This document shows, in pieces, positions 1-17,073 of a stretch of DNA of 64,000 bases. Made by a program: the position numbers and the translations under genes. The notes beneath the pieces are model-generated. The model was not told where the DNA came from. It did not search any database and saw only the letters and a program-made list of their open reading frames with translations. Origin of the DNA: Clostridia bacterium (GTDB lineage Bacteria; Bacillota; Clostridia; UMGS1883); contig JAZTXM010000002.1 of assembly GCA_045636425.1 (NCBI GenBank), forward strand, positions 93,951-157,950. The letters are read 5' to 3'. How positions within the stretch are numbered: the first letter of the stretch is position 1; each line of letters begins with the position of its first letter.

Positions 1-121
1 TAGGCTTTCCGTCAGCAGCAATAACATATACACCCATAGACTGAGCAACACGTACAATATTTGAATCCGCCTCCGTAGAGCCAATGACAAGTATTTTTTT
101 TCCTTTTAGATTATCATACAT
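1..121 (-). CDS. Partial CDS (N-terminal 40 aa only). The start is immediately downstream of the DegT-like gene, and the N-terminus resembles the Rossmann-like N-termini of ATP-grasp ligases (MYDNLKGKKILVIGSTEADSNIVRVA...).
   Basis: Reverse-complement ATG at 119-121 is preceded by GGAGG 9 nt upstream. The ORF runs off the window start. The N-terminus resembles that of the ATP-grasp protein at 15805-17073 (MKTLKGKRLLVISSDGSD...). Not in the ORF track because it is under 60 aa in the window. Confidence 0.35.
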   Translation of the reverse strand, partial: MYDNLKGKKILVIGSTEADSNIVRVAQSMGVYVIAADGKP

Positions 122-138
122 AATTCTTTCCTCCAGAG

Positions 139-1092
139 TCAATCACAAAGGTGATTTTTTACCATCTCAATAATATAGTTCATATCTTCTGCGGTATATC
201 TTTGGTCACATGGGAGAGGTAAAATATTTTTTGCCATATTGTATTCAAGCTGATCCTTGCCGCAAACATCAAAAACATCTGACCAAAGTGTAGGAATATA
301 GATTTTTTTCTTCTGCAATACTGTTCGGATTTCGGAAGCGTTTTCCACATATAACGGGTACATGAACGCCCCCTCACATATAGTTAAACTAAGTCCATTG
401 ATATTTTTAAATTCCGTGTGCAAATCTATAAAATTCTCAGTTCTCCGGATTCTTACGAAATTGTAGTCAATACCTTTAAGCAGATTTTTTGTAAGCTTCG
501 ACATCTGTCTTAACGGTTCATTTGAAAAGCTTGTATTATTCTCAACATATTCACCATAAAACTCTGACGCCCCAGCTTCAAATCTGCCCAAAATATAATG
601 CATTCTATTATATGATAAATCTATCGGTATATCAAAATCAACAAATGCGTCTGTATACAAGTATCCTCCGTCACAAACTCCAAAAAATTTTCTGCACGTA
701 TATAATGTATCAATACCTGAAACAGGCAATCTGAAAAAATCTTGCGCATTGTCAAGAATAATATTTTTATATTTAGCTTTATACAACACAATCTTTTCGT
801 TACTTATCTGACCATAATAGTTTACTATGTAAACCCATGCCTCATTATCGACGTTTTCAATTATCGGTTCAAAACGTTCATTAATATGATAAAATTCATA
901 CTCACATTTACATTTGATGCAACAGTTTTTTATAGAAGAACATAGAAAATACGGAATGTATATACGTTTGATTTTCTTTGCTCTTATCAGGTATTCAAGG
1001 CAATGTCTTCCACTATTTAATGCAAGCGCATTTTTATGATATTCTTCGCCATTAAATCTATCTAATTCAATATAGCCACCGATTTCCCTCAT
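139..1092 (-). CDS. Short divergent DegT/DnrJ/EryC1/StrS-like PLP-dependent enzyme (sugar aminotransferase/dehydratase family)
   Basis: 317 aa. Blocks resemble DegT family motifs (ILDNAQDFF ~ IEDAAQA; C-terminal ...PLPCDQRYTAEDMNYI). Paralogous to the CDS at 13123-14096. Its start overlaps the next gene by 4 nt, indicating an operon. Confidence 0.45.
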   Translation of the reverse strand: MREIGGYIELDRFNGEEYHKNALALNSGRHCLEYLIRAKKIKRIYIPYFLCSSIKNCCIKCKCEYEFYHINERFEPIIENVDNEAWVYIVNYYGQISNEKIVLYKAKYKNIILDNAQDFFRLPVSGIDTLYTCRKFFGVCDGGYLYTDAFVDFDIPIDLSYNRMHYILGRFEAGASEFYGEYVENNTSFSNEPLRQMSKLTKNLLKGIDYNFVRIRRTENFIDLHTEFKNINGLSLTICEGAFMYPLYVENASEIRTVLQKKKIYIPTLWSDVFDVCGKDQLEYNMAKNILPLPCDQRYTAEDMNYIIEMVKNHLCD

Positions 1093-2285
1093 TTTCTTAT
1101 CACATCTATTTCCTTGTAAATATTCTTAAGCAATGCTGACATAGACTTTTTATCTTCAAACTGCATAAATATAATACCCAAAGCCTTATTTGCGCTGTCA
1201 AAGTATTCTATCTCACTGCCTTTTTTAACGTAAATATTTTTCTGTACAATATGGCTGTTTAAATAATTACTGAATTCAATTTTTTCCAGAATCCCTGAAC
1301 TGTCCACATGAATATTATGCGTAGCCAAAAACCTACTCTCTAAACTTTCATCCACAAGTATGTCAAAGTCACCCATTGCACACTTTAAAGTAGCTTCTAC
1401 CATATCAAAGCCTGTTGCCATTTCAAGCAAATCCGGAATCATATTTCCGCCATTACGAGGACCGTTTTCTATTAAGTAAAGTTTATTATCCTTACCAAAA
1501 ATCATCTCAACATTGAAAGCGCCAAACTTGATTTTTAGTGCATCCATTAAACGTTGTTCTGTTTCTTTTATTATAGTCAATTGTTGCTCGGTAATGCTTG
1601 CCGGCCAGCTTTTTCCTACCGGCACAAGCGGATTGACATTTGTATCACGATGACAATCGAGCAATCCCCAGAAAATTATTTTTCCGTCCAGAACAAAAAT
1701 ATCCCCACCAATTACAAACTCATTTGTCCGTTCTATGTACTCCTCAATAATTACTATATTATTTCTGGAAAATTTCATTGCATTATCATACGCTTGTTTA
1801 AGTTCGGAAATATCTTCCACCTTTGTTATACCTTTACTTCCCGAAGAGTCTGAGGGCTTCACCATCAAAGGCAAACTAAAACTATTAATAATTTGCCCAA
1901 CTTCTGAATAAGAAGTAAAGCTTGCCGAGTGCGGACAATTAAATCCATGCTCTTTTAAAAACTTACGAAACAAGTGCTTTTCTGCCAATATTTCCACCGA
2001 TTCATATGAATTAGTAGGAAGTCCCATTTTTTCAGCTACATAAGCTGCCGTTGGTGCTGCCGGATCAGACGCATATGCAACTATTCCGTCAATATGTTCC
2101 TTCAGTGCAACAGCAAGAACTTCCTCCTTGTCTGTTGTGCTGACTTGATAAAAGATATCCGAACAAAACTGTCCCGGATTGTCAGGTAAATAATCACACA
2201 AAACCGTATAATACCCTAATTTTTTTGCTTTTTCTATTGCAACAATCTGTTGTGGCGATCCTCCAAGAAGCATCAATTTTCTCAT
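1089..2285 (-). CDS. ATP-grasp domain carboxylate-amine ligase
   Basis: 398 aa. Pre-ATP-grasp N-terminus (LMLLGGSPQQIVAIEKAKKLGYYTVLCD) and an ATP-grasp core (LMVKPSDSSGSKGITKV...IIEEYIE). Confidence 0.7.
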   Translation of the reverse strand: MRKLMLLGGSPQQIVAIEKAKKLGYYTVLCDYLPDNPGQFCSDIFYQVSTTDKEEVLAVALKEHIDGIVAYASDPAAPTAAYVAEKMGLPTNSYESVEILAEKHLFRKFLKEHGFNCPHSASFTSYSEVGQIINSFSLPLMVKPSDSSGSKGITKVEDISELKQAYDNAMKFSRNNIVIIEEYIERTNEFVIGGDIFVLDGKIIFWGLLDCHRDTNVNPLVPVGKSWPASITEQQLTIIKETEQRLMDALKIKFGAFNVEMIFGKDNKLYLIENGPRNGGNMIPDLLEMATGFDMVEATLKCAMGDFDILVDESLESRFLATHNIHVDSSGILEKIEFSNYLNSHIVQKNIYVKKGSEIEYFDSANKALGIIFMQFEDKKSMSALLKNIYKEIDVIRK

Positions 2286-2290
2286 AGAAA

Positions 2291-3736
2291 CTAACCTCTT
2301 TTTTTCAATATACCTTTAGCCATTGATAAAATGTAGTAGAATGACTCGTTTTTTGATACAAATGACACTATAATATATACACTAGCTCCAACTAATGTCT
2401 GCATCACAATCTGTAATAAATCATTAACATGAATTAAATTCACAAGTAAAACTGATATTATCATAAAAACTAATGGAACTATGCAGTTGAATAAATCTTT
2501 AATTTGCTCGAGATAATTATAATTAATCAATGTTTTATTTGGTCGCGCATTAACAAATGAATTAAAAATCGTGGTAAACATCGCACTGATCGCTATCACA
2601 AGCACACTGTAACGCATTGCAGCAATCAACACCAAAATACCAATGATTTTCTTTATAATTTCGAGTTTAAGAAAAATATCGCTTCTACCCATTGCTTTAA
2701 TTGCCTGAAGGTTCGCCGTATGTATAGGTCTCATAGCCATAACAAAGCACGATATCTGAAGAAATTTGACACACGGAAGCCACTTTTCTGTAAGAAGAAG
2801 CCTTACAAACGGCTCTGACACCAAAGCAAGTCCAATCATAGCCGGCATCATTACATAGCTGCTTATTCTTATCGAACGGCGCACCATTAACTTCACCTGT
2901 CCTTTTTCGTCCTGGGCACTGGACAGGGCAGGAAAAAGCACGCTTTGTATGGAAGAATTGATATTTGTTACTATGAGATTGGGAAAGCTTTTTCCCTTAT
3001 TGTAATATGCAAGGTCAGCCGGTCTGTACATTTTTCCTATAACAAGGCTACGAAGCTCATTGTAGCCTGTTTCAAGAAGTGCCGAACAAAGGATTTTCCA
3101 ACCATAGGAAAAGAGCCCGCCAAGTCTTTTAATGGAAAACAACAGCTTAGGTCTCCACCTTACTGTAAACCAAAGCACAACGGTATCTGTTATCGTGTTT
3201 GTCATATACTGCCCTACAAGTGCCCATACACCAAATCCGTGATAAGCCATCGTTATTCCGACTACTGCTGAGGCAAGCGTACCGCCCAGTGTCGACCAGA
3301 AAAATCTGCGGAACATCATATGCCTTGAAACATATGCATGCTGCACACTGTTAACGCCCGCAACTATAAGTCTAAGCCCCATAACGCGCAAGGTGGGGGT
3401 AAGAATTGGCATTGAATAAAACTTTGCTATAATCGGAGCCGTAAAAAACACCAATATGTATATAACTACCGACATTACAATATTAAAATAAAACACAGAT
3501 GAAAAGTCCGTATCATCGGAATCCTTTTTCTGAATCAGTGAATTACCAAACCCGCTTACAACAAATACATTTGCAAGTGCAATAAAAATATTTATAATTG
3601 CAATAGCACCGTAATGCTGCGGATCAAGAAGCCTCGCAAGCACAATCGAAACAGCAAAAGTTACAATCTGCGCCAGTACTCGTTCTGAAAATTTCCAAAT
3701 GAGTCCGGAAAGAACTTTACCTCTTACATTTTGCAT
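2291..3736 (-). CDS. wzx: Polysaccharide biosynthesis protein / Wzx-type oligosaccharide flippase
   Basis: 481 aa, multi-pass membrane protein with a typical Wzx N-terminus (GKVLSGLIWKFSERVLAQIVTFAVSIVLARLL). Confidence 0.75.
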   Translation of the reverse strand: MQNVRGKVLSGLIWKFSERVLAQIVTFAVSIVLARLLDPQHYGAIAIINIFIALANVFVVSGFGNSLIQKKDSDDTDFSSVFYFNIVMSVVIYILVFFTAPIIAKFYSMPILTPTLRVMGLRLIVAGVNSVQHAYVSRHMMFRRFFWSTLGGTLASAVVGITMAYHGFGVWALVGQYMTNTITDTVVLWFTVRWRPKLLFSIKRLGGLFSYGWKILCSALLETGYNELRSLVIGKMYRPADLAYYNKGKSFPNLIVTNINSSIQSVLFPALSSAQDEKGQVKLMVRRSIRISSYVMMPAMIGLALVSEPFVRLLLTEKWLPCVKFLQISCFVMAMRPIHTANLQAIKAMGRSDIFLKLEIIKKIIGILVLIAAMRYSVLVIAISAMFTTIFNSFVNARPNKTLINYNYLEQIKDLFNCIVPLVFMIISVLLVNLIHVNDLLQIVMQTLVGASVYIIVSFVSKNESFYYILSMAKGILKKRG

Positions 3737-3753
3737 AAAAATCTACTTCCTAA

Positions 3754-4707
3754 TTATTTTAATAATTTTCTTTTCAAATTCAAAAGCCCCGGACTTATAT
3801 ATTTCAGTGTTATTTTCAACCTCTTTTTCAATGGAAGCTTTTTATAATATTCTCTGTACGGAGGTCTTTTCAATTCTTTCAACGTCATTATATCGTGACA
3901 CACTGTGATCGCATTTTTCATTCGTTTTTCATGGATGACTTCCGTATATTTGTAATCAGTGTCTCTGTCTATATCCAGCCACAAAGAATCTGTCTTTTTA
4001 AAGTTATTCACACGAAACTCTTTGTCCTTTTTGTTTCTGGTAGTCCATGAACCATTAACGTTGGTCCTGTAGATTGCCATACAATCTTTAAGATAGAGCA
4101 TGCCACCTCTTAAGGAACCGTGTGTCTGCAACAGGAAATCCATATTTGATTTCTGACGAAAAGCAGGTCTGTCTTTATCAATTTCACTCCTGTAGAACAA
4201 AGAGTTAGTAGCTACAAATCCGCCACCGCCTGAGATAACCTGCTCCACGCTAAAAACTGAATTTTCCTCACAAGCTGAAAAACGTTTTGTAACACTATTT
4301 GTTGAAGCGTCAATTATTTCCGCCTGATGGGCACAGATATCAATCTCCGGATGCTGCTGCATTGCATCATACTGTTTCTGAAGTTTGTAGGGATCTGTCC
4401 AATAATCGTCACCTTCACATACTGCCACGTATTTTCCTTTTACACGAGGAAACTGAAAACTCACACTTATCTTTACACCTTTAGAATATTGGTTTTCAGT
4501 CTGGTAAACAGGCTTTATCAGTTCGGGATACTTTTTTTCATATTCTCTTATAATGTCTGCTGTTTTATCTGTAGATGCATCATCATGTATCAGTACTTCA
4601 AACGGGAAATTCGTCTTTTGCATAATAAAGCCATCAAGTGCATCTTTTATGTATGGTTCGTGATTGTACGCATTGCATATAACGCTTACTGCAATTTCTT
4701 CGTTCAT
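3754..4707 (-). CDS. Family 2 glycosyltransferase
   Basis: VSVICNAYNHEPYIKDALDGFIMQ...VLIHDDASTD is a GT2 signature. Confidence 0.8.
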   Translation of the reverse strand: MNEEIAVSVICNAYNHEPYIKDALDGFIMQKTNFPFEVLIHDDASTDKTADIIREYEKKYPELIKPVYQTENQYSKGVKISVSFQFPRVKGKYVAVCEGDDYWTDPYKLQKQYDAMQQHPEIDICAHQAEIIDASTNSVTKRFSACEENSVFSVEQVISGGGGFVATNSLFYRSEIDKDRPAFRQKSNMDFLLQTHGSLRGGMLYLKDCMAIYRTNVNGSWTTRNKKDKEFRVNNFKKTDSLWLDIDRDTDYKYTEVIHEKRMKNAITVCHDIMTLKELKRPPYREYYKKLPLKKRLKITLKYISPGLLNLKRKLLK

Positions 4708-4754
4708 TTACTTACCTCTTTTCGATTATTAAACCGGAATTTCTATTAATACTA

Positions 4755-5300
4755 TCACTTTAAAGGTTTTAAAATCAATTCTCTGGATTGTGTGACTAAA
4801 GTATTATCGGGAATTTCTCCTTTTACAACACACCCTGCACCAATCACACAGTTTCTACCAATCCGAGTTCCCCGTAATATAATAGCATTTGCCCCAATCC
4901 AAGAATTCTCTCCAACAAACACTTCTGACTTATTAAATCCCTTTATACGACCGGTTTTATCAAATCTATGATCATGATCATAGATTGTTACTCCCGGACC
5001 TAAAGAACAAGAGTTTTCAATGCTTATTTTTTCATGGCAGACAATTGTTACGTTTCTGTTCATTGTTACATTTTTGCCAATATTAATGGTCCCTCCCACT
5101 GTTGCTACATATGAATACTGAGCTATAGAGCTACCTCTGCCTATTGATATTTTTCCGCCCTGCCTTGCAATTATATCTACTTTTTTTCCAAAAGCCACTC
5201 TTTCTTCGCATTTTAATTTTCCAAGCTTCTTTATGACTTTCAAATCTTTTCTCAAAATACCAAAGACTTTTTTTATATAATAACTAAAATCCATATTCAT
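4755..5300 (-). CDS. Hexapeptide-repeat (LbH) acetyltransferase
   Basis: 181 aa with repeated [LIV]G-x4 hexapeptide units (IGKNVTMNRNVTI...IGANAIILRGTRIGRNCVIGAGCVV). Confidence 0.75.
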   Translation of the reverse strand: MNMDFSYYIKKVFGILRKDLKVIKKLGKLKCEERVAFGKKVDIIARQGGKISIGRGSSIAQYSYVATVGGTINIGKNVTMNRNVTIVCHEKISIENSCSLGPGVTIYDHDHRFDKTGRIKGFNKSEVFVGENSWIGANAIILRGTRIGRNCVIGAGCVVKGEIPDNTLVTQSRELILKPLK

Positions 5301-5360
5301 TTTCTCCTCTTATAGCTCAATTGAGGCCCCACTACCAATCACTTTTCAAATGATATAATA

Positions 5361-6284
5361 TCACAACTTTATCATTTCACCTAATTTATAATCCCATTCT
5401 TCCGGCTCCAAGCACACCATTCCGCTGCCCGGAAAGAATGTTAATTCTCCAAAATATATTTTATCGTTAATCTCATAAAAATCAACTCGTAGGAAAGAAA
5501 TTCCCTCCGATAATGTTTTAGCCAGTTCAAGCATTTTTTCTAAGTTTTCAGGTTTTTTGGGTAGCTGTGAAAAAGGCTCATAATCCAATCTTTTAAACGG
5601 AGCCTGTTCCCAATCCAGAGTAACAAAACTTATTCTTGCCGTTGCATGATTTTCCAGGCCCGTTGAAACATAGGCAAATTGCGGTACTCCCCCAAAACAA
5701 TAAAATTTATAATCAGTCAAGCCTTCTTTTGAATTAACATCATCTGTATCTACCATGAATTTCTCTGCGATAATTCTGGGCTTTATATTCTTGTAGGGCC
5801 ACTCTCGGTTCTGCCAGAAATAGTTCCGCTTCATACATTTATCTATTTTTAACTTCGCTGCACTTGCATCAAACAGTTTCTTATCTCTGCATATTACAAG
5901 CCCTCCGCTGTCATGAGTGCATTTGAGGACAAATTGGTCGGGCAAGCTGTCAAAGTCAATTTCCTCAAAACTATCCCATACCCCAAGAAGCGGTATAAGA
6001 TATTCTTCGCCTATTTTTTTCTCTATGTGTTTTCTGACCTCATATTTGTCTGCCATTTTTGTATATTCAGGATTTCTGTCGTGAAGTTTTAACCACTGGA
6101 GCTTTTCGTTAAACGTCTGCGGATTTTTAAGATTCAGTTTTTTTTCCATTTCAAGTCTATATTTCGCAGCGAGGAACACTTTATCAGGAAGAATTCTGAA
6201 TATAGCACATTTGTTTAAAAAAACCTTCATAGCCAGCTTTGGATTAGAAAACGTAAGTTTCAATTTTCTAAACATATTATTCAT
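5361..6284 (-). CDS. TupA-like ATP-grasp protein (teichuronopeptide-type amide-forming enzyme family)
   Basis: 307 aa. Matches the family pattern (LNLKNPQTFNEKLQWLKLHDRNPEYTKMADKYEVRKHI...VLKCTHDSGG). Paralog of the CDS at 9725-10651. Confidence 0.65.
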   Translation of the reverse strand: MNNMFRKLKLTFSNPKLAMKVFLNKCAIFRILPDKVFLAAKYRLEMEKKLNLKNPQTFNEKLQWLKLHDRNPEYTKMADKYEVRKHIEKKIGEEYLIPLLGVWDSFEEIDFDSLPDQFVLKCTHDSGGLVICRDKKLFDASAAKLKIDKCMKRNYFWQNREWPYKNIKPRIIAEKFMVDTDDVNSKEGLTDYKFYCFGGVPQFAYVSTGLENHATARISFVTLDWEQAPFKRLDYEPFSQLPKKPENLEKMLELAKTLSEGISFLRVDFYEINDKIYFGELTFFPGSGMVCLEPEEWDYKLGEMIKL

Positions 6285-7515
6285 CCCCCTCGTTAGACGT
6301 TATCCCACTCTCTGATGGTTTTTTCAATCTGCCTACAGGCAAAAGCAAAAACGCAAGCATTATCCACAATTTTTTATCATAATAAGTAACCATCGCCATC
6401 TCAAGAACTGTTCTGACAACAAGTATAACCAAAAGAAGCCTGCCCTCGCTTGACTTTTCTTTGTTTATATTATTAAATGCAGACAGATACATAGAATAGT
6501 ACAAAAGGAATCCAATAAGTCCTATACCCACAAGAATTTCTATAAAATTATTGTGAGAATACATTCTATATCCACTTACGTACCTGAAGTTATTTACTCC
6601 ATGCCCTATGAGCATTTTTTCCTTAAAAAGCCGCCACCCCGTCCCTATGAATTTCAGTCTTGCCCTGGTAGAACCATCACCGCCGGATTGACCGAGAAGA
6701 GCATTTATACTCTCTTCAAATCTCCTGCGCACCATTTCAAACATTGGCATCTGTATCGCTATATAGAACAAAATCCCTGCAAATAACGTTACCCCAACAA
6801 TTTTATATAGCTGCCTTACTCCATACATTTTGTATACAAGATACAAAATTCCTATGATTGCAATAAGCAATGCTTTTTTTGAGCCACTTGACATAGCACA
6901 TATGAACGAGGAACACATTATAGCAAAATGAAACAGCTTGTGCCTTTTCCTGTACATCATATAATAAAATGCAATAAGCGTTGTCGTAGCGTGATTCATA
7001 CCATACACGTTTGCCTGGCTGATATCACCGCCAAGTCGTTGGGCCTTAGTGGATAACATTGTTTTAATCAAATCACTTACGCCATATGCATAGACCGTAT
7101 ATACTACAAAAGCTATCCCTCCGATATACATTGCACTGATATACTTTTTATACGCATCTTTATTTTCGTAAAAAAGATTGTATACCAAATAGAATAAAAG
7201 GAATATTTGCCACATAGTCTTTATATTTATAAGTGCTAAACGTTGATTCGTCGCCCAAAAGAATGACGCAAATATCCATGAACAGGTAAGATATGCCAGC
7301 ATAAATGACTTGCCGAAATACATTCTTTTTCTTTCCAATATATGAAGCATCGTAAACCCTGCAAAAAGTATAAAAGCTACATATGTGTATATAAGAGCAC
7401 TTTTATCGCTCATAAACAAATAATCTGTTACCATATACACCGCAAAGAAAAACTCCGCCATTCTTAAAACCAAGGTTTTCTTTTGTCTATTTCTCATTTC
7501 AATATTCATTGTCAA
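6277..7515 (-). CDS. wzy: Wzy-type polymerase / O-antigen-ligase-like integral membrane protein
   Basis: 412 aa with more than 10 predicted hydrophobic spans, embedded between glycosyltransferases in a glycan locus. Confidence 0.5.
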   Translation of the reverse strand: MTMNIEMRNRQKKTLVLRMAEFFFAVYMVTDYLFMSDKSALIYTYVAFILFAGFTMLHILERKRMYFGKSFMLAYLTCSWIFASFFWATNQRLALINIKTMWQIFLLFYLVYNLFYENKDAYKKYISAMYIGGIAFVVYTVYAYGVSDLIKTMLSTKAQRLGGDISQANVYGMNHATTTLIAFYYMMYRKRHKLFHFAIMCSSFICAMSSGSKKALLIAIIGILYLVYKMYGVRQLYKIVGVTLFAGILFYIAIQMPMFEMVRRRFEESINALLGQSGGDGSTRARLKFIGTGWRLFKEKMLIGHGVNNFRYVSGYRMYSHNNFIEILVGIGLIGFLLYYSMYLSAFNNINKEKSSEGRLLLVILVVRTVLEMAMVTYYDKKLWIMLAFLLLPVGRLKKPSESGITSNEGDE

Positions 7516-7549
7516 TGTTCCTTACTGTAAAAAGCAATAAATTTTACTA

Positions 7550-8659: not shown

Positions 8660-9721
8660 TTATAACCCTATAACCTTAGCCCACAAATTTATTATGTTTT
8701 CGGTTTTGAATTTTTCCACACTTTTCTTGCCATTTGCCGAAATTTTATCACGCAAGCTTTCATTTTCTATCAAACTGACAATCGCTTTTTCCAGAGCATT
8801 CTCATCCCCTACCGGAACAAGAAGTCCGTTTTCGCCGTTTACTATAACTTCATCCGAGCCTGCACATTCGGTAGAAACACACGCAAGCTCCATCATCATC
8901 GCTTCCAGAAGAGCATTTGAAAGCCCCTCGTAATTTGAAGACAGAACAAAAATCTGTGCATCATTTATTTCCTGATGGAGACCGGCGACATTTCCTTTAA
9001 GAAAAACGTTGTTTTCAACATTCAGATGTTTTATATGTTCCTGCAATTCTGCACGCAACTTTCCTTCGCCATATATTTCCAGTACATAATTGGGATACTT
9101 CTTGCAGACTTTCGCAAAACTGCTGATCAGCATTTTATGATTCTTTTGTTTTTCCAATCTTCCTGCACTTACTATTTTATTCTTTTTTATTTCAGCAACA
9201 TCCTGGCTTACCTGCACGGGATTGCCTATCACAACAGACTTACGCTGTATTTTTTCGGAATAAAACTTCTTAGCTCTTTCAGTTTGAAAAACAACACAAT
9301 CGCAGCGCTTATAAAAGAAATTTATTGCCTTTTGAATAACCATATTTCTCTTTACCGCACCTGGGTCTATTCTCTCGCTTGTAATATGCCTTACCTTTGC
9401 AAGCTTGCAGGCAATATCTGCTACGGGGCAGTTTTCAGCAATGAATGAAACAACCACATCGGGTTTTATTTCCTTCAGCTGCTTTATCAACTTGAATAGC
9501 ACCGTACCCAATTGCTTTTTGAAACTTTTCTTATCATCGGACAAATTCAGGATTTTTATTTTTTCATCCAGGGCGTAACCTACTTTGTTGTGCCAAAGCA
9601 TTATTATGGTTACGTCCCATCCGATATTTGCATAATAATTACTTAAGATTGAAACGACGCGTTCTGCTCCTCCTCGTCCCATAGATGTAACTACGAAAGC
9701 TAATTTTTTATTTTCTGTCAT
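8660..9721 (-). CDS. Family 4 glycosyltransferase
   Basis: SSNYEGLSNALLEAMMMELACVSTECAGSDEVIVNGENGLLVP. Confidence 0.85.
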   Translation of the reverse strand: MTENKKLAFVVTSMGRGGAERVVSILSNYYANIGWDVTIIMLWHNKVGYALDEKIKILNLSDDKKSFKKQLGTVLFKLIKQLKEIKPDVVVSFIAENCPVADIACKLAKVRHITSERIDPGAVKRNMVIQKAINFFYKRCDCVVFQTERAKKFYSEKIQRKSVVIGNPVQVSQDVAEIKKNKIVSAGRLEKQKNHKMLISSFAKVCKKYPNYVLEIYGEGKLRAELQEHIKHLNVENNVFLKGNVAGLHQEINDAQIFVLSSNYEGLSNALLEAMMMELACVSTECAGSDEVIVNGENGLLVPVGDENALEKAIVSLIENESLRDKISANGKKSVEKFKTENIINLWAKVIGL

Positions 9722-9724
9722 TTC

Positions 9725-10651
9725 CTATTTTCCTCTTTTTCTGCGTTTTTCAGGCAAAACAAAGTTTTTTCCCATTTCAAAATCGAATTCGTCAGGTACA
9801 AACCGAACATATCCGCTGGCATTAAAAAACGTAAGCTCTCCAAAAACAACTTTTCTGTCTATATTGTAGAAATCAACTCTTGCGTGAGGAAAGGGTGCAG
9901 AAAGAATTTCTGCATACTCCACCATTTTTTCATAGTTTTCGGGTTTTTGGGGTTGATTTTCCATAGGTGCAAAATCGGCACGTCTTACAGGAAGAAGATT
10001 AAAATCTCTGTCAAAAAAGCCCATTACGCCCGCAGCATGATTTTTGGTGTAATTCTCCATCTTGTAAGAGTAATGCACCTTTCCATTAAAACAGAAGAAC
10101 TTATAGTCGTGTAAGTCGCCGCTTTCATCGTTTTTCAAAAGGCGCTCAATTATTACACGATGTTTTCTGTTTTCGTAAACCCACTCACGCCCCGAAGATT
10201 TTTTATTCGTCGGTTTTTCAAGCCATGAAAGCATAGTGTTTCTTAACTTACCTAAATCCTCGTTGTCTTTGTTTTCGACCAGCACAACAGAATTCCCTCC
10301 GCCGCCAAGGGTATCTTTTACAACAAACGCCCCGGGAAGTTTTTCAAAATCAATGTCATCTGTTGAAGTGAATACGCCATAACATTCGTTAAGTATTTCT
10401 TCCAGGCCACACTCTTTGACATAATTTCTCACATCGGCTTTGTCACTACACACAGCCATCAGTTCTTCTTTATAATTTAATTTATACCACTGAATCTTTT
10501 CACTGTATCGCTGAGGATTTTTTAAATTCAGTTTTCTGCCTAGCTTTATAAAGTATTGAAATCTGACCATTGCGGAGTCGGGAACAAAACTGAACATTTT
10601 CAGAATTTTTATTCTTAAGTTTCTGCTTTTCAATATGTTTTTATAGTTCAT
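9725..10651 (-). CDS. TupA-like ATP-grasp protein (second paralog)
   Basis: 308 aa. LNLKNPQRYSEKIQWYKLNYKEELMAVCSDKADVRNYV...VVKDTLGGGGNS. Same architecture as 5361-6284. Confidence 0.65.
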   Translation of the reverse strand: MNYKNILKSRNLRIKILKMFSFVPDSAMVRFQYFIKLGRKLNLKNPQRYSEKIQWYKLNYKEELMAVCSDKADVRNYVKECGLEEILNECYGVFTSTDDIDFEKLPGAFVVKDTLGGGGNSVVLVENKDNEDLGKLRNTMLSWLEKPTNKKSSGREWVYENRKHRVIIERLLKNDESGDLHDYKFFCFNGKVHYSYKMENYTKNHAAGVMGFFDRDFNLLPVRRADFAPMENQPQKPENYEKMVEYAEILSAPFPHARVDFYNIDRKVVFGELTFFNASGYVRFVPDEFDFEMGKNFVLPEKRRKRGK

Positions 10652-11745
10652 TTTGCTAATCTCCCTAACTCTGTCATATATTTGTCAATAACTATATTTC
10701 TGTCAAATTCTTTTTCAACCTTTTTTCGTCCACGAAGTCCCATTTCTTTTCGTTCTTCAAAGGACAACGCAAGGAATTTCTCAATTTTTTCAATCACGTC
10801 CTGTGTATTTTTCTGCTTTACAATATAGCCGTTTACACCGTCATCTACAATTTCACGGCAACCGCTGCGGTCTGTGGTAATTATCGCCCTGCCGCTGGCA
10901 CAGGACTCGAGAAGCACATTGCTCATTCCCTCGGGATAATACGTGGGATGAATTGTACAATGAATTTCCTTATGTATTTCACGTATATCGCGAAGTCTGC
11001 CATGGTAATTTATAATTCCTTTTTCGTGAAGCTGCCTCAGTTTTTCCTGATATGCCTCCTCACAAGAACCGCAAACATGGAAAACTGTATTCGGGTACTT
11101 CTCCTTTATATACTCCGCCGCTTCAAAGTACTGGTCGGCACCCTTTTCTTTCATAATGCGGGAGATGAATGCAAATTCCACTGTATCCTTTTCAGGATAA
11201 GGCATAAGCCCAAACCTCTCAAGATTTACCCCCGAACCGGGAAGAAGCTCATGTTTTCCTCTCGCAATTTTCTTTTTAACAAAGAAATCCATATTCTCTT
11301 TATTCTGAAAGAACACCTTTTTAACCCGTATAAAACCGAGCTTGTACAAAAAGACTGTAAGAAGCTGCATCTTTCCACCGTTTTCAACAGCACTGCCAAG
11401 CCCCGTTATATTCGGTACGCAGGGAATTCCCAAAACGGCACATGCCATAGCTCCGTAAATATTGGGCTTTATAGTATATGTAAAAACCATATCGGGTCTT
11501 TCCCTCAGAAGTATCTTTAAATATTCGAAAAACAGCTTCACATCAGTAAATACGCTTGTTCCGCGCCTTTGAATATTTTTTACAAAGGAAACTTTGCAAC
11601 CTATTTCGGTAAATTCCTCTGTTTCCTCATGCTCGGGGCAATAGATTGCGACATCGTGCCCCTCATCGCGGAATTTCTTCATAACCTCAATTCTGAATGA
11701 GCGAAGTCCCGTTATTGAATTTGTCAGTATAAGTATTTTTGACAT
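10648..11745 (-). CDS. Family 4 glycosyltransferase
   Basis: MSKILILTNSITGLRSFRIEVMKKFRDEGHDV... Start chosen at the internal ATG (M7), which has GAGGGG 5 nt upstream and a 3-nt gap from the DegT stop. The track ORF extends to 11763. Confidence 0.75.
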   Translation of the reverse strand: MSKILILTNSITGLRSFRIEVMKKFRDEGHDVAIYCPEHEETEEFTEIGCKVSFVKNIQRRGTSVFTDVKLFFEYLKILLRERPDMVFTYTIKPNIYGAMACAVLGIPCVPNITGLGSAVENGGKMQLLTVFLYKLGFIRVKKVFFQNKENMDFFVKKKIARGKHELLPGSGVNLERFGLMPYPEKDTVEFAFISRIMKEKGADQYFEAAEYIKEKYPNTVFHVCGSCEEAYQEKLRQLHEKGIINYHGRLRDIREIHKEIHCTIHPTYYPEGMSNVLLESCASGRAIITTDRSGCREIVDDGVNGYIVKQKNTQDVIEKIEKFLALSFEERKEMGLRGRKKVEKEFDRNIVIDKYMTELGRLAK

Positions 11746-11747
11746 AA

Positions 11748-12923
11748 TTACCCCTCGAAGCATTCTTTAATAATTTTAATAACCTTTTCCTGCTGTGTTT
11801 TGGTCATCTTAATATCACTGGGGAGGCACAATCCTCTGCGGAATATATCCTCGCCTACGTTATCCCCGTTTGTGATGAAATCATAGCCTTGATATACCGG
11901 CTGCATATGCATGGGCTTCCATATAGGACGAGCCTCTATATTTTCTTTTTCAAGAGCCAAGCGGATTTTTTCGGGATTTGCTTTTTTCATTGCGTCTTCG
12001 TCAATCAGCATACAGCTGAGCCAGAAATTAGGCACGCTATGTCCCTCGTAGGGATTCATGGAAACTGGGAGTCCCTTAAGACCTTCTTTATACCTGAAAT
12101 AAATGTCCTCTTTCAGCTTTCTGTGTTCTTCCAGATGAAGCATCTGTCCCCTTCCGATACCTGCCACAACATTACTCATACGGTAGTTATATCCGATGTG
12201 TTCATGCTGGTACCATGGAGCTTGTTCCCTTGCCTGAGTTGAGAAAAAGCGAACTCTCTGCACGGCTTCTTCATCGTCAGAAAGAAACATTCCGCCGCCC
12301 GAAGTAGTAATGATTTTGTTTCCGTTGAAGCTTACAGCACCATACTTTCCGAAAGAGCCTGTTTGCTTTCCTTTATATGTAGCGGAAAGCGATTCTGCCG
12401 CATCTTCTATAAGAATCACTCCGTACTCATCGCAAAGTGCCTTGATTTCATCAATTTTGGAGGGAGTGCCGTAAAGATGCACAAGCATTACAGCCTTGAC
12501 TTTTCCCTTATACTTTTCAAGTGCAATTTTAAGTGCGGCAGGATCCATATTCCATGTATCACGCTCACTGTCTACAAAGACCTGTGTCCCGTTTTCATAG
12601 CTGACAGGATTTACAGTTGCGGCAAAGGTTAAATCGGAACATATAACAATATCTCCGTCTTTCACCCCTGCCAGTTTAACTGCAAGGTGCAATGCGTGAG
12701 TTCCTGCCGTCATCGCCGCTGCTGCCTTTACTCCTACAAAGGAAGCCATCTCATTTTCAAATTCTGTTACATTTTTACCTAAGGGGGCTACCCAATTTGT
12801 ATCAAATGCCTCTTTCACAAAAATCTGTTCTTCTCCATGCATGGTTGGTGAAGAAAGCCATATTTTTTCGCCGCTACTCATTCCTCGCACCCTCTTTTCT
12901 GACAGTTTTTGAGCATAATGCAC
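11748..12923 (-). CDS. DegT/DnrJ/EryC1/StrS family PLP-dependent sugar aminotransferase
   Basis: 391 aa with the canonical motifs (SFNGNKIITTSGGGMFLSDDEEA...YNYRMSNVVAGIGRGQM). Confidence 0.85.
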   Translation of the reverse strand: MHYAQKLSEKRVRGMSSGEKIWLSSPTMHGEEQIFVKEAFDTNWVAPLGKNVTEFENEMASFVGVKAAAAMTAGTHALHLAVKLAGVKDGDIVICSDLTFAATVNPVSYENGTQVFVDSERDTWNMDPAALKIALEKYKGKVKAVMLVHLYGTPSKIDEIKALCDEYGVILIEDAAESLSATYKGKQTGSFGKYGAVSFNGNKIITTSGGGMFLSDDEEAVQRVRFFSTQAREQAPWYQHEHIGYNYRMSNVVAGIGRGQMLHLEEHRKLKEDIYFRYKEGLKGLPVSMNPYEGHSVPNFWLSCMLIDEDAMKKANPEKIRLALEKENIEARPIWKPMHMQPVYQGYDFITNGDNVGEDIFRRGLCLPSDIKMTKTQQEKVIKIIKECFEG

Positions 12924-13122
12924 ACAATTCTAACATTATAATTATAGTACACTTGTTCAAAATAGTCAATGATTTTCTCATCCAAAGTGTTTTTTCATTG
13001 CAAGAAGAACAAATCCCCTGCCTTTTCTCAAAGAAAAAATCTATCTTTCCATAAAACATTTGACATAACAAAGAAAAAAGTATATGATATATTTGTGATA
13101 TTATGTATAGGAAGTATTTTTA

Positions 13123-14096
13123 TGAGAATCGAGATTGGAAGCGAATTTTGGGATATACCCACATCCGAAAAAAATCAATTATTCCCGAAAGATACAAATT
13201 GGTTTATTTCAGGTCGCAGTGCTCTTAAAGCAATAATAAAGGACAATAATTTCAAAACAGCCGCATTACCCGACTGGTGCTGTGAAAGTATGGTAACTCC
13301 CTTCATTAACGCAGGTATTGAGGTTTCATTTTATCCCGCTTTAGAAAGAAAAATCCGTACAAATGCAGATGCCTTGCTCATTCTTGACTATTTCGGTTAT
13401 ATTCAGGATATAAAACTGTGTGATTTTGATGGAGTTGTTATACGCGATGTCACACATTCTCTTTTTTCTGCCAACTATACTGATGCCGATTATTGTTTCG
13501 GAAGTCTTAGGAAATGGGCAGGATTCTCTACCGCGGGATTTGCGTGGGGATTTAAATCTCCTGTTTCCTATGAAGACCCTCTGCACGATTATGTTGATTT
13601 AAAAAGAACTGCTATGGCAGAGAAAAAGGCCTACATCAATGAGAAATCAGACGTCAAAAACTACCTTGACAAATTCAGCTCCGCTGAGAATATGCTTGAG
13701 CATATAGGTGTTTTGCCTGCCGATCCTGATGATGTGGTTTCAGCATCAAAACTTGATGTAGATTTCATAAGGAACCGTAGGAGAAAAAACGCACTGATAC
13801 TGCTTGATGCATTTCGTGATATTGCAATTTTTCCTGAACTTAAAAACACCCAATGCCCGTTAGCTGTTCCCATAAGAGTCAAAGACCGCGACGGGTTACG
13901 ATTTCATTTGATACAAAAAGAAATATACTGCCCTATTCATTGGCCGAAAGCTGCCTGTCATACCGATGTTTCCCCGGTTACAGAGGAAATTTACGACAGT
14001 GAACTGAGCCTTATATGCGACCAACGCTACGATGAAAATGATATGCGCCGCATTGTTTCTGCGGTTAAAGAATTTTTGAATAAGGAGAATTCATAA
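13123..14096 (+). CDS. Short divergent DegT-like PLP-dependent enzyme (paralog of 139-1092)
   Basis: Start at MRIEIGSEFW. ISGRSALKAII, VVIRDVTHSLF and the C-terminus ...CDQRYDENDMRRIV parallel the protein at 139-1092. Preceded by a TTGACA-17-TATGAT promoter. Confidence 0.45.
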
Positions 14097-15131
14097 ATGT
14101 TAACTGTATACACCACACAGCAAAGAGAACAATGGGACAATATAGTGCGTACCTTCAGAAGCCACGATGCTTACTGGCTCTGCGGATATGTAAAGGCATT
14201 TGAAATTCATGGTGACGGAACCGCCCTTCTTTTTCATTATGAAGATGATTCCGTAAAGGGCATAAATGTTGTAATGAAACGCGATATTTCTGATGATTCC
14301 AGATTTAGCTCTGTTATAGAAAAAGGCAAATATTTTGACCTTGCAACACCCTACGGATATGGCGGCTGGCTGATTGAAGGAGATAGTACAGACAGGCTTT
14401 TTTCCGAGTACGAAAAATGGTGTGCTGAAAACAACATTATTTCCGAATTCGTGCGATTTCATCCGGTTCTTGAAAACCATCTCCTTGCAACGGCATATGA
14501 TGTAATTGGGCTGGGATATACGGTTGCACTCGACTTATCCTCACCCGAAACCATATGGGCAAATATTACGAGCAAAAACCGTAACGTAATACGCAAGGCA
14601 CAAAAAAATTCCATTAAAATTTATAATGGTCGTTACCCTGGAATTTACGAGATTTTCCGTGAAATCTATAACTCTACAATGGACAAGGACAATGCAGATT
14701 CTTACTATTACTTTTCTCCCGAATTCTACGAAAGTGTCTGCAATGACCTTCCTCATAATGCTCAGGTTTTTTATGCTGAAATGGAAGGTAAAGTTATAGC
14801 CGCATCAATTATGCTCACAACAAACGGCAGAATGAATTATCATCTTTCCGGTTCCGTAAGAGAATATGCCAATCTCGCACCTTCAAATCTGTTGTTGTAC
14901 GAAGCTGCACTGTGGGGGTGTGCCAACGGTTACAAAACACTATACCTCGGTGGTGGCGTCGGAAGCGGCGAGGACAGTCTTTTTAAATTTAAGAAATCCT
15001 TCTATCGCAGTGATGATTTACCAAGATTTTATATAGGCAAAAAAATCTTCAATCACGAGTTATATGATTATCTTACCGGATTGAGAAAAGATTTGCCGGA
15101 TAGTGGATTTTTTCCTCGTTACAGAGCTTAA
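14097..15131 (+). CDS. FemAB-like / GNAT-fold (Acetyltransf_6-type) aminoacyl transferase
   Basis: 344 aa. VIRKAQKNSIKIY...VFYAEMEGKVIAASIML...NLLLYEAALWGCANGYKTLYLGGG resembles the FemX/BioF2-like family. Confidence 0.55.
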   Translation: MLTVYTTQQREQWDNIVRTFRSHDAYWLCGYVKAFEIHGDGTALLFHYEDDSVKGINVVMKRDISDDSRFSSVIEKGKYFDLATPYGYGGWLIEGDSTDRLFSEYEKWCAENNIISEFVRFHPVLENHLLATAYDVIGLGYTVALDLSSPETIWANITSKNRNVIRKAQKNSIKIYNGRYPGIYEIFREIYNSTMDKDNADSYYYFSPEFYESVCNDLPHNAQVFYAEMEGKVIAASIMLTTNGRMNYHLSGSVREYANLAPSNLLLYEAALWGCANGYKTLYLGGGVGSGEDSLFKFKKSFYRSDDLPRFYIGKKIFNHELYDYLTGLRKDLPDSGFFPRYRA

Positions 15132-15157
15132 CACATCAGTAAAAGGAGAGTTAGATA

Positions 15158-15808
15158 ATGTACGCTAAATTTTTTAAAAGATTTCTGGATGTTTTTCTTT
15201 CCGCTTTGGCACTACTGTTATTTTGGTGGGTGCTTGCAATTATTTCCATTATAGTAAAGATTAATATGGGCAGTCCTATACTCTACAAATCCGAACGCAT
15301 GGGCAAGGACGAGAAGCCTATAAAACTATATAAATTCCGTTCTATGACTAACGAAACAGACGAAAACGGAATACTTCTTCCGGCACCACAAAGGCTGACA
15401 AAATTCGGACGTCTTCTCCGCAGTACAAGTCTTGACGAATTACCATCTCTGCTTAACATACTAAAGGGTGATCTCAGCATTGTAGGACCAAGGCCCTTAC
15501 TTATGAAGTATAAACCCTTTTATTATGAGCACGAGAGAGTTCGCCATAATATCCGTCCGGGACTGACCGGCTGGGCACAAGTAAATGGAAGAAATCTCGT
15601 TTCCTGGGATGATAAATTCAAAATGGATATTGATTATGTCAACAAAATGTCTCTATGGCTTGACATAAAGATACTTTTTTTAACGGTGTATAAGGTATTC
15701 AAACGTTCAGACATAGTTCACGATGACCAAACCACCCAGAGTTTATACATAGTACGTTCATTTATGAACATCGAAGAAAATATTGAAGTTGAGGAGTATA
15801 GAAAATGA
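15158..15808 (+). CDS. Priming sugar-phosphate transferase (PglC/WbaP C-terminal-domain type, bacterial sugar transferase family)
   Basis: 216 aa with a single N-terminal TM. Conserved KLYKFRSM...RLTKFGRLLRSTSLDELPSLLNILKGDLSIVGPRP. Confidence 0.85.
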   Translation: MYAKFFKRFLDVFLSALALLLFWWVLAIISIIVKINMGSPILYKSERMGKDEKPIKLYKFRSMTNETDENGILLPAPQRLTKFGRLLRSTSLDELPSLLNILKGDLSIVGPRPLLMKYKPFYYEHERVRHNIRPGLTGWAQVNGRNLVSWDDKFKMDIDYVNKMSLWLDIKILFLTVYKVFKRSDIVHDDQTTQSLYIVRSFMNIEENIEVEEYRK

Positions 15809-17073
15809 AAACATTGAAAGGAAAGCGTCTTTTGGTTATAAGTAGCGACGGCAGCGATATCGAATTTGTAAAAGCAGCAAAAGAATTGGATATGGAAGTA
15901 GTTTGTTGCGACCGTTATGAGGATTGGAACATTAGCCCTGCCAAGCTTATCAGCGATGAGGCCTGGAATATGGATTATTCCGATACAGAGGCTGTTGCAA
16001 AAAAATGTAAAGAAGAAAAAATAGACGGTGTTATAGCCGGTTACGGCGAGGACCGCGTTCTGGCTGCTTGCAGAGTTTCCAAAGCTATCGGCACACCTTT
16101 CTATGCAACAGAAGAACAGATAAACATTACACGCGATAAAAGACTTTTCAAAAAAATATGTAATGAGTGCGGCGTAAACACTCCCCGCGAATACTGTTTC
16201 GGACTTCCAATGAAAAGAGAAGACCTTGACAAAGTAAAGTATCCGGTAATTGTAAAGCCATCTGACAACGGCGGACGAAAGGGTATTTCTGTGTGCTTAA
16301 ACGAAGCACAACTTATGGATGCCATCAACGATGCCGCGGATTATTCAAAAACCGGCGAGGTTGTTGTAGAAGAATACCTTACAGGAGTTGAGCTTTCTGC
16401 TATTTATACTATTTCCAATGGTGAGGCGAGCTTTTCCTGTTTGAATGACAAGTACATATCCCAGGAAAACGAAAATTCCAGCTTGTGCGATTTTGTTATT
16501 ACTCCGTCAAGATTTTATGACGAATATATCCATACAGTAGATGCCGGAATAAAAAAGTTGCTGAAGCATATCGGAGCAAAGAACGGTGTTGCTAATTTCC
16601 AGTTAATTGCGGGTCCCGACGGAATAAAAGCTTTTGAAATGGGTTACCGTGTGAACGGAAACAATGACTTTAAAGTTATACGCAAATATAACGATATAGA
16701 CTTTATGAAGATGCTTATATCCTATGTTACTACCGGTGACATGGGCGATTCTCTTTCTAAAGACAATCCGCTTTTCAAGGAGTACTACTGCACTCTCACG
16801 CTCCTTCTCAAGGCCGGAAAAATTGCAAAAACAGATTACAGCAAGCTTGAAGAACTTGACAACATCGACGATATTTCCGTTTGGAAAAAGCCCGGAGATA
16901 TAATTTATAACACCGGCACAAATGCACAGAAAGCAGGTATGATTAAGTTTTCTGCAAAAAACATGGATGAGGTTAAACGCACAGTACAATTTATCCACGA
17001 AAATCTGATTGTGGAAGACGAAAACGGAAACAGCATGAAAATGAAACTGTTTGATACAAAAAGACTTGATTGA
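15805..17073 (+). CDS. ATP-grasp domain carboxylate-amine ligase
   Basis: 422 aa. LLVISSDGSDIEFVKAAKELDMEVVCCD...YPVIVKPSDNGGRKGISVC...VVEEYLTG. Overlaps the upstream gene by 4 nt. Confidence 0.7.
   Translation: MKTLKGKRLLVISSDGSDIEFVKAAKELDMEVVCCDRYEDWNISPAKLISDEAWNMDYSDTEAVAKKCKEEKIDGVIAGYGEDRVLAACRVSKAIGTPFYATEEQINITRDKRLFKKICNECGVNTPREYCFGLPMKREDLDKVKYPVIVKPSDNGGRKGISVCLNEAQLMDAINDAADYSKTGEVVVEEYLTGVELSAIYTISNGEASFSCLNDKYISQENENSSLCDFVITPSRFYDEYIHTVDAGIKKLLKHIGAKNGVANFQLIAGPDGIKAFEMGYRVNGNNDFKVIRKYNDIDFMKMLISYVTTGDMGDSLSKDNPLFKEYYCTLTLLLKAGKIAKTDYSKLEELDNIDDISVWKKPGDIIYNTGTNAQKAGMIKFSAKNMDEVKRTVQFIHENLIVEDENGNSMKMKLFDTKRLD

Follow-up and report, generated by a model that had tools for sequence, protein, structure and literature searches.

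A predicted Wzx/Wzy-dependent surface polysaccharide locus of a Clostridia bacterium with two members of an unnamed, DegT-like protein family among its amide-forming enzymes

Amide-linked amino acids on surface glycans alter charge, antigenicity and recognition by phages and the immune system. Such decorations are chemically well documented in Gram-negative O antigens; little is known, however, of the enzymes responsible for attaching them to amino sugars, and those that add the amino acid in the Escherichia coli O antigens cited here are not known to have been characterised. E. coli O antigens hold amide-linked glycine, N-acetylglycine, alanine, N-acetylserine and D-allo-threonine, as well as amino-acid amides of galacturonic acid; N-acetylglycyl is found in O121, N-acetyl-L-seryl in O114, and N-(3-hydroxybutanoyl)-D-alanyl-4-amino-4,6-dideoxyglucose (Qui4N) in O123 (PMC7685785). 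In Campylobacter jejuni, the C-terminal TupA-like domain of Cj1438 (Cj1438C) amidates glucuronic acid (GlcA) at its C6 carboxylate in the growing capsule; it is the only TupA-like domain with demonstrated activity, and adds small amines to GlcA (PMC11800379). [quoted passage not shown] Here we describe a glycan locus in a 64,000-nucleotide stretch of DNA from a Clostridia bacterium (contig JAZTXM010000002.1; the whole stretch is called the window), in which two related proteins of an unnamed family, X1 and X2, are encoded among several kinds of amide-forming enzymes.

Window positions 1-17073 are best read as part of a Wzx/Wzy-dependent locus for a surface heteropolysaccharide (capsule, extracellular polysaccharide or wall), one that varies between strains. 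Families were assigned from an open reading frame (ORF) listing together with Pfam, NCBIfam and PDB sequence searches. The locus is laid out as a minus-strand operon, running from a DegT aminotransferase gene through X1 to an ATP-grasp gene at the window edge, and a divergent plus-strand operon running from X2 to a second full ATP-grasp gene; it continues past the left window edge, and its gene content is incomplete. We put the probability at about two in three that its product is a Wzx/Wzy heteropolysaccharide in which the uronic acids are amidated and amino sugars are of the N-(acyl/aminoacyl)-aminoacyl kind. The genes surrounding X1 and X2 are the following (aa, amino acids; PLP, pyridoxal 5'-phosphate).

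2-121, minus strand: AG3, N-terminal 40 aa of a third ATP-grasp (AG2-type), the gene running off the window
139-1092, minus strand: X1, 317 aa, predicted DegT fold, probably PLP-dependent, unnamed family
1089-2285, minus strand: AG1, ATP-grasp resembling L-amino-acid ligases (Pfam ATP-grasp families, 1e-11 to 4e-13)
2291-3736, minus strand: Wzx flippase (Polysacc_synt_3, 3e-99)
3754-4707, minus strand: GT2 glycosyltransferase (Glycos_transf_2, 1e-19)
11748-12881, minus strand: canonical DegT sugar aminotransferase, LegC/PseC/PglE-like (DegT_DnrJ_EryC1, PF01041, 1e-92)
13122-14096, plus strand: X2, 324 aa, paralogue of X1 (BLASTP E 3e-15, 25% identity)
14097-15131, plus strand: FemAB-like (aminoacyl) transferase (Acetyltransf_6, 4.3e-13; FemAB, 1.4e-12)
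15158-15808, plus strand: PglC-like small phosphoglycosyltransferase (primer), 216 aa (Bac_transf, 1.4e-61)
15805-17073, plus strand: AG2', ATP-grasp ligase of a type found as partner of the X1 and X2 subfamilies alike (ATP-grasp Pfam families; PDB 4dim, 2e-18)

The window holds one module twice: as an anchor copy, the DegT gene and, divergent from it, X2-FemAB-like-PglC-like-AG2', and as a mobile copy, AG1-X1-AG3, with its own Wzx and GT2 genes. A DegT gene of the mobile copy probably lies beyond the window edge, after AG3. The best PDB matches of AG1 were 4dim (1e-29) and the L-amino-acid ligase 3vot (8e-17), and its gene overlaps that of X1 by 4 bp. The AG3 fragment translates as MYDNLKGKKILVIGSTEADSNIVRVAQSMGVYVIAADGKP; it shares 90% identity with residues 1-39 of a 425-aa ATP-grasp encoded after the X1 homologue in locus L081, and 39% with the N-terminus of AG2'. 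The FemAB-like protein scored 50 bits against Acetyltransf_6 (cut-off 22) and 48 bits against FemAB (cut-off 24); its best solved relative is FemX of Weissella (PDB, 1.3e-6), over the C-terminal half only, and its donor is predicted from the family to be an aminoacyl-tRNA. The canonical DegT matched the NCBIfam LegC family at 1.5e-107, under that model's cut-off, and its start was placed at 12881 from relatives in L087 (95% identity) and L089 (86%), giving a 377-aa product; an exact look-up set the start of X2 at 13122, not 12969.

X1 and X2 matched no Pfam or NCBIfam model at E<=0.01, nor any PDB sequence. The DegT profile PF01041 matched neither of them and, among the 240 listed relatives of X1 and X2, a single protein (P0372) carries a precomputed PF01041 match. 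The original prediction had called X1 and X2 short divergent DegT-like proteins; their DegT kinship is upheld by structure prediction and profile comparison, while sequence searches of Pfam, NCBIfam and PDB recognise neither. In a profile-profile comparison with DegT proteins, X1 residues 21-316 aligned to DegT residues 67-390 with a probability of 95.8%, and both X1 and X2 take the fold-type-I DegT fold in prediction, the nearest folds all being nucleoside diphosphate (NDP)-sugar aminotransferases. R134 and K135 are invariant (CRKFFGxxDGG), K135 falling within one residue of the DegT Schiff-base lysine (SFNGNK), and D114 (DNAQ) aligns to the aspartate of the DegT EDAAE/EDAAx motif. K135 and D114 were invariant across 29 X sequences, among them X2, which keeps the R-K and D motifs. 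From these alignments, K135 would be the PLP-binding lysine and D114 the aspartate that binds the pyridine nitrogen, and X is almost certainly a DegT-fold, PLP-binding protein. A dead pseudo-enzyme was also considered; the invariant lysine and aspartate and the strong conservation across the family speak against it. X1 lacks about 45 N-terminal residues of DegT and has a short, conserved, low-confidence segment in their place, which may be a partner-binding or lid element. Within its residues 1-20 (window 1092-1033, minus strand), E3, G5 and E9 are invariant and G6-Y7-I8 near-invariant; residues 1-9 were modelled with a predicted local distance difference test score (pLDDT) below 50.

The X family is very large: of 1.84 billion representatives of 50%-identity clusters, 7950 matched at E<=1e-3, and tightening the limit to E<=1e-10 left 5110; the X2 subfamily has 2149 relatives at E<=1e-10. 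Members named in the sources carry only the designation 'hypothetical protein'. Natural fusions join X to a C-terminal GNAT domain (P0154, P0166 and P0211) or to an ATP-grasp (P0178, 757 aa). One further relative, P0175, has a 120-aa N-terminal extension on the X domain that matched no family.

The surroundings of X1 relatives were compared in a sample of 80 genomes or loci, mostly from Ruminococcus, Oscillospiraceae and Lachnospiraceae, with Treponema, Victivallales, Thermoguttaceae, Sphaerochaeta, Granulicatella and Selenomonadaceae among the other taxa; 77 X1 homologues were scored for adjacent genes. The recurring order was GT2 or GT56, Wzx, AG1, X1 and then a second enzyme. In 52 of the 77 the gene directly upstream encoded an AG1-type ATP-grasp, and the one directly downstream encoded an ATP-grasp in 32, a GNAT protein in 16 and a hexapeptide transferase in 3. 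The place upstream of X1 can be taken by other ligases: a WbqC-like protein (PF08889, 1e-65 to 1e-70) is encoded there in four Clostridia loci, with AG1 absent, and a FemAB-like gene holds the position in L076, while in L048 a WbqC-like gene lies one GNAT gene away from X1 with AG1 present upstream. A Wzx gene accompanies the AG1-X1 cassette in 51/80 loci and a GT2 gene is found within the locus in 48/80, usually adjoining the cassette Wzx. Canonical DegT genes were found within 10 kb of X1 in 67 of the 80 loci, only five full-length loci being without one; RmlA and short-chain dehydrogenase/reductase (SDR) genes often follow the DegT, and a DesI-like DegT is among the companions of the cassette. 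In L081, the closest relative found (X1 84% identical, Wzx 74%), X1 is followed by an ATP-grasp, which shares 46% identity with AG2', and then by a DegT, and a WecF-like GT56, of the TDP-4-acetamido-4,6-dideoxygalactose (TDP-Fuc4NAc) transferase family, replaces GT2 beside Wzx. For the left flank itself, an exact look-up of the X1 protein returned no record and a 30-mer scan of metagenome contigs was empty; a scan for close relatives yielded only two short human-gut contigs at 47-48% identity.

The genes inserted behind the second ATP-grasp vary between loci, yet all of them concern amino-acid or organic-acid supply. Adjoining the second acylating enzyme are an ornithine cyclodeaminase and an amino-acid permease in L009 (12243-14831), and an MR/MLE enzyme and an opine dehydrogenase in L003 (12229-14512). 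The insert of L022 (1217-6577) comprises a hexapeptide transferase, a MaoC hydratase, two HpcH/citrate-lyase-like proteins, an NDP-hexose 2,3-dehydratase and a Gfo/Idh/MocA oxidoreductase, and that of L093 (10328-15002) an 80-aa ORF, an AMP-binding ligase and PrpD. Other inserts carry glutamate and citrate-type (CitMHS) symporters, or PrpD with a D-2-hydroxyacid dehydrogenase. This variety suggests a broad spectrum of unusual acyl groups between strains.

The anchor module was followed through all X2 contexts examined (L087/L088, L089, L090, L091, L092 and L093). In every one, a FemAB-like gene lies directly downstream of X2, an AG2-type ATP-grasp is adjacent, and a PglC-like primer is no more than three genes away. 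The X2-adjacent ATP-grasps of L090, L092 and L093 share 28-33% identity with AG2', and the FemAB-like proteins of L087, L089 and L090 share 71-84% identity with that of the window. Three of these loci, L087, L089 and L091, have the same right flank, consisting of a LysR gene, a DctM-like permease, a class-I W/Y (TrpS/TyrS-family) tRNA synthetase, a TagO-like glycosyltransferase and MnaA, and their anchors are 70-95% identical to that of the window (DegT 86-95%, X2 70-88%, FemAB-like 81-84%). Leftward of the anchor they differ in glycosyltransferases, in the copy number of TupA-like genes, and in the presence of a pyruvyl transferase or other modules, and L087 lacks AG1-X1-AG3 entirely. This comparison of related strains for presence or absence of the locus, which the original prediction had suggested, revealed a common anchor and flank, placed at the same chromosomal site, with divergent variable regions. 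The same mosaic supports the earlier proposal of a horizontally exchanged, serotype-type locus, as do the lower GC content of the variable part and the recurrence of the cassette in an O-antigen cluster of Proteus mirabilis. The region had also been described as more AT-rich than its flanks, which is real (38.0% GC in 1-17073 versus 42.8% in the flank at 20.6-45 kb) and strongest in the variable part, the lowest GC being found in the left variable genes (X1, 32.6%); the difference is modest, and absent in DegT (43.5%, genome level).

In P. mirabilis H63 (NZ_OL790811.1; positions 11124-15966 of locus L094), the O-antigen cluster lies just downstream of cpxR-cpxA and has the order DesI-like DegT, GT2, WbqC-like, X, SDR, followed by FnlABC and Ugd; its WbqC-like and X genes are at about 60.1-61.8 kb of the full record. 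The Proteus X is 45% identical to X1, and the SDR 67% identical to the one that follows X1 in the Clostridia metagenome-assembled genome L042, a likeness that indicates transfer between phyla, and the species would make a tractable model organism. The record itself, 4.07 Mb long, is filed as a plasmid in PLSDB and is evidently a chromosome. A megablast search of window 1-8000 against plasmids gave no match. In E. coli genomes, where an X homologue was sought in O121-type clusters, blastn with the WbqC-like and X genes from Proteus likewise gave no match at the DNA level. In the literature searched, we found no description of this modular combination of three ligase families with an unnamed PLP family.

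The scheme that follows starts from what the analysis showed, namely the gene set, folds, residue conservation, synteny, fusions and the strain mosaic, and proposes from these all substrates, the order of steps and the reaction of X. The PglC-like transferase would begin the repeat unit on undecaprenyl phosphate with a 4-amino sugar, the product of the LegC/PglE-like DegT, three GT4 enzymes and the GT2 would extend it, and Wzx would flip the unit for polymerisation by Wzy. The four-part module (DegT, amino-acid ligase, X and a second N-acylating enzyme) is predicted to turn a 4-amino sugar nucleotide into one bearing a two-residue acyl/aminoacyl chain on its amine. The anchor copy would dress the initiating sugar, its ATP-grasp and FemAB-like enzymes adding two residues with X2 acting in between, and the mobile copy (AG1, X1, AG3) would dress a second amino sugar added by GT2. 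This second sugar is probably a dTDP-4-amino-4,6-dideoxyhexose, judging from the RmlA and SDR genes, the WecF-like GT56 and the DesI-like DegT that accompany the cassette. X would act between the two acylations, either making the amine for the second enzyme or altering the first residue there. Two TupA-like ligases would amidate GT4-added uronic acids at C6 with an amine or amino acid on the lipid-linked unit, and O-acyl groups would come from a hexapeptide acetyltransferase and possibly also from an MBOAT/SGNH pair in the flank. Both kinds of amide decoration would be cytoplasmic and ATP-dependent. The earlier proposal of an amide-linked amino-acid or short-chain decoration is well supported by the family assignments, by conserved neighbourhoods with sugar aminotransferases and by precedent, its substrates being deduced.

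The fixed place of X between acylating enzymes, and its fusions to the second of them, suggest that it makes or modifies the amine used by that second enzyme. Our tentative proposal, one that we hold at rather less than even odds, is that a ligase (ATP-grasp, WbqC-like or FemAB-like), X and an N-acylating enzyme form an undescribed but widespread three-step, two-residue pathway in which X, as a novel functional class among DegT-fold PLP enzymes, acts on a sugar-linked acyl residue and not on the ring of the sugar. X could, for example, turn a 2-oxoacyl group on the sugar into an aminoacyl group by transamination, setting the D or L configuration, or it could epimerise or convert an aminoacyl residue ahead of capping. 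A somewhat more doubtful alternative is that X1 and X2 are divergent sugar aminotransferases whose neighbours acylate the ring amine, the canonical DegT serving another sugar or a second amino group. Pairs of an aminotransferase and an N-acyltransferase are classical (PglE/PglD, WecE/WecD, VioA/VioB), and the X-GNAT and X-ATP-grasp fusions resemble them; all of the nearest X folds are NDP-sugar aminotransferases, the PLP lysine and aspartate are retained, and L090, L092, L044 and L063 carry X with no canonical DegT nearby, two of them beside RmlA. The almost universal co-occurrence of a canonical DegT nevertheless argues against a simple ring aminotransferase: as one is present in 67/80 X1 loci and most contexts of X2, X is as a rule an additional enzyme and not the sole aminotransferase, and two X proteins, one visible DegT and a probable second would mean up to four aminations on a five-sugar unit. 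X also lacks roughly the first 45 residues of DegT, and the module has no conserved extra sugar oxidoreductase that could make a second keto group. It is less likely again that X draws on a central metabolite to provide an ATP-grasp with a free, non-standard amine or amino acid for ligation. In the HS:2 capsule of C. jejuni, the DegT-like Cj1436 and Cj1437 make ethanolamine phosphate and serinol phosphate for the amidoligase Cj1438, a known case of DegT-family enzymes that work on small phosphorylated metabolites beside a TupA-like ligase; the N-terminal truncation of X would suit a substrate other than a nucleotide sugar, and genes of keto-acid and organic-acid metabolism and transport lie nearby. 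X, however, pairs with AG1/AG2-type ATP-grasps and not with TupA-like ligases, which occur in only 7/80 X1 loci, and X-GNAT fusions are hard to account for if the product of X is ligated elsewhere. The partner of X2 is moreover FemAB-like and, if it is tRNA-dependent, ordinary amino acids would suffice with no supply enzyme, which disfavours X as a supplier of free unusual amino acids.

The original prediction had labelled the polymer teichuronopeptide-like. A polymer of that kind, a polyuronate covalently joined to a peptide or poly-gamma-glutamate as in B. halodurans, is very improbable, although the locus does have two TupA-like proteins, and its Wzx, GT2 and GT4 proteins show weak NCBIfam likeness, far under the cut-offs, to TuaB, TuaG and TuaC. 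No poly-gamma-glutamate synthesis gene was found among the Pfam-scanned ORFs (all large ones of 1-22 kb and a sample of the rest of the window), and no relative of ugd in the 64 kb; a Wzx/Wzy repeat-unit route with a PglC-like primer and five transferases points to a heteropolysaccharide, not a homopolymer, and the sole TupA-like domain of demonstrated activity adds small amines to GlcA (PMC11800379). For these reasons the label was given up. In the heteropolysaccharide model, the TupA-like pair would instead amidate uronate carboxylates, by analogy with Cj1438C. Both proteins cover positions 1-241 of the 241 in the PF14305 profile and share 37% identity, and the embedding of both genes among glycosyltransferase genes fits action on the lipid-linked unit. 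A UDP-glucose dehydrogenase (Ugd) was present in five of seven TupA-like-bearing loci, as against 6/73 others (Fisher p = 3.5e-4).

Several points weigh against the heteropolysaccharide model and its decorations. The precursor supply for both decorations is unseen: no relative of the Ugd cluster was found in the whole 64-kb window, leaving the uronate without a visible supply gene, nor was any RmlA or any SDR of the locus-associated cluster (RmlB-like ones included), and no PglF-type 4,6-dehydratase turned up among the ORFs examined, although it was not specifically searched for. These precursor genes may be located left of the window. The ORFs of 1-22 kb include no chain-length regulator, tyrosine kinase, LCP attachment enzyme or export component; the chain-length, kinase and LCP genes may likewise have their position left of the window. 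The FemAB match is modest (E about 1e-12), and X without a nearby canonical DegT, as in L090, L092 and five full-length X1 loci, fits a sugar aminotransferase. To our knowledge, neither the X family nor the AG1/AG2-type ATP-grasps nor these FemAB-like proteins include a characterised member, and the substrates of all of them are guessed from neighbouring genes; a literature search for characterised ATP-grasp enzymes acting on amino sugars found nothing relevant.

The remaining features of the locus are listed below.

4755-5300, minus strand: hexapeptide-repeat acetyltransferase, WbbJ-like (Hexapep, 8e-15; NCBIfam WbbJ, 2e-20)
5361-6284, minus strand: TupA-like ATP-grasp amidoligase 1 (PF14305, 1.8e-68, full length)
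6277-7515, minus strand: Wzy-type polymerase (Wzy_C, 2e-14)
7550-8629, minus strand: GT4 glycosyltransferase (Glycos_transf_1, 6e-35)
8660-9721, minus strand: GT4, PglJ/PglH-like (Glycos_transf_1, 4e-38; NCBIfam PglJ, 2e-43, under its cut-off)
9725-10651, minus strand: TupA-like ATP-grasp amidoligase 2 (PF14305, 4.7e-43)
10648-11763, minus strand: GT4, member of the conserved anchor (Glycos_transf_1, 7e-30; 88% identity in L089)
12882-13121, no strand: divergent promoter region between the operons, with sigma-70-like matches
17080-17110, plus strand: terminator-like hairpin closing the plus-strand operon (13-bp stem with 6 G-C pairs, then a T-rich tail)

The gene inventory given in the original prediction agrees with these assignments. 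Profile matches confirmed a Wzx/Wzy set of three GT4 and one GT2 glycosyltransferases, a PglC-like primer, an acetyltransferase, Wzx and Wzy, all in the places given for them, and Pfam, PDB and NCBIfam searches recovered the two TupA-like proteins, the two full ATP-grasps with a fragment at the edge, and the one canonical DegT. The FemAB-like protein likewise held up, with both profiles above their cut-offs, and the profile searches proposed for the TupA-like, FemAB-like and ATP-grasp ORFs returned the named families and not unrelated ones. Overlaps of 4-16 bp between many of the genes suggest translational coupling. Sigma-70-like 11/12 sites at 12969-12941 (minus strand) and 13060-13088 (plus strand) are well positioned and face outward, in a region where the number of such matches is not above chance.

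Right of the locus, an acylation gene pair stands between the LysR gene and the DctM-like gene.

18059-20574, minus strand: MBOAT (DltB/AlgI-like; 3e-39) and a weakly matching SGNH/GDSL-like protein (GDSL, only 1e-3)

The pair is present in the window and in L089 and absent at this site in L087 and L091. It may be an O-acylation system, differing between strains, that serves the glycan or the wall, its membership of the locus being uncertain. The DctM-like permease (20698-22074, plus strand), which resembles the large subunit of tripartite ATP-independent periplasmic (TRAP) transporters and stands alone, is a conserved neighbour of the locus, both in the window and in L087, L089 and L091; in L092 the cluster itself contains it, directly upstream of PglC, and an ORF of about 88 aa follows it in L087, L091 and L092. 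It might import an acid for decoration. The idea that it is the counterpart of the CitMHS and glutamate transporters of related clusters was rejected, as no similarity was found. Farther right, in a stretch of 35% GC at 45-50 kb, an 887-aa protein (45549-48212, minus strand) combines SLH, trypsin-like peptidase and fn3 domains. SLH proteins bind pyruvylated wall polysaccharides and, given this protein and the pyruvyl transferase of the L089 variant, the polymer could be a wall polysaccharide and not a capsule. The window also encodes a choloylglycine (bile-salt) hydrolase (44012-44959, plus strand, 2e-94) and the spore protein YabQ (49324-49812, minus strand), which, together with the origin of the relatives in gut and rumen metagenomes, point to a spore-forming, gut-type Firmicute or anaerobe as the host.

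We consider X1 and X2 the most interesting part of the locus, as members of a very large unnamed family fixed between two acylating enzymes. Gut and rumen Clostridia carry a modular, apparently mobile decoration toolkit, which is also found in Treponema, Victivallales and Proteus, and its core is the X family, with about 8,000 clusters at 50% identity and a name in no profile database; a reaction for this family would annotate thousands of glycan loci. If X does act on a sugar-linked residue, the entry of D- and non-proteinogenic amino acids into bacterial glycans would have an explanation. The surface polymer predicted from the locus varies between strains, is zwitterionic or highly charged, and would be relevant to interaction with the host.

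Compared with described systems, the locus resembles C. jejuni HS:2 (Cj1435-Cj1438) in having a PF14305 TupA-like protein among glycosyltransferases and DegT-family PLP enzymes in the same locus; the HS:2 domain carries out ATP-dependent amide formation on uronate C6 during chain assembly (PMC11800379). It differs in that its TupA-like proteins are stand-alone and present in two copies, that X1 and X2 pair with ligases other than TupA-like ones, that no HAD phosphatase or ugd is visible, and that export is Wzx/Wzy-dependent and not ABC-transporter/3-deoxy-D-manno-oct-2-ulosonic acid (Kdo)-linked. Unlike the TupA system of B. halodurans teichuronopeptide, it specifies a repeat-unit heteropolysaccharide, with no poly-gamma-glutamate machinery in the scanned ORFs. 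As in the bacillosamine route (PglF/PglE/PglD/PglC) and B. subtilis EpsL/M/N, a small PglC-like primer adjoins a PglE/LegC-like DegT, so that the first sugar is probably a 4-amino sugar, but the acetyl-CoA-dependent PglD step is replaced by X2, the FemAB-like protein and an ATP-grasp. In the cytoplasm, the FemX enzyme of Weissella viridescens (UDP-MurNAc-pentapeptide:L-alanine transferase) takes an aminoacyl group from tRNA and attaches it to an amine of a nucleotide-linked precursor, the kind of reaction proposed here, although the similarity is low (1e-6, C-terminal half) and the setting is a polysaccharide locus and not peptidoglycan. The WbqC-like and X pair of related Clostridia loci and of the P. 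mirabilis O-antigen cluster links the module to WbqC-containing clusters, from which the present locus differs in that its ligase is an ATP-grasp or FemAB-like and its host a Gram-positive-type anaerobe. With Gram-negative O antigens it would share a 4-amino-6-deoxyhexose that bears an N-acylated amino acid on its amine (PMC7685785).

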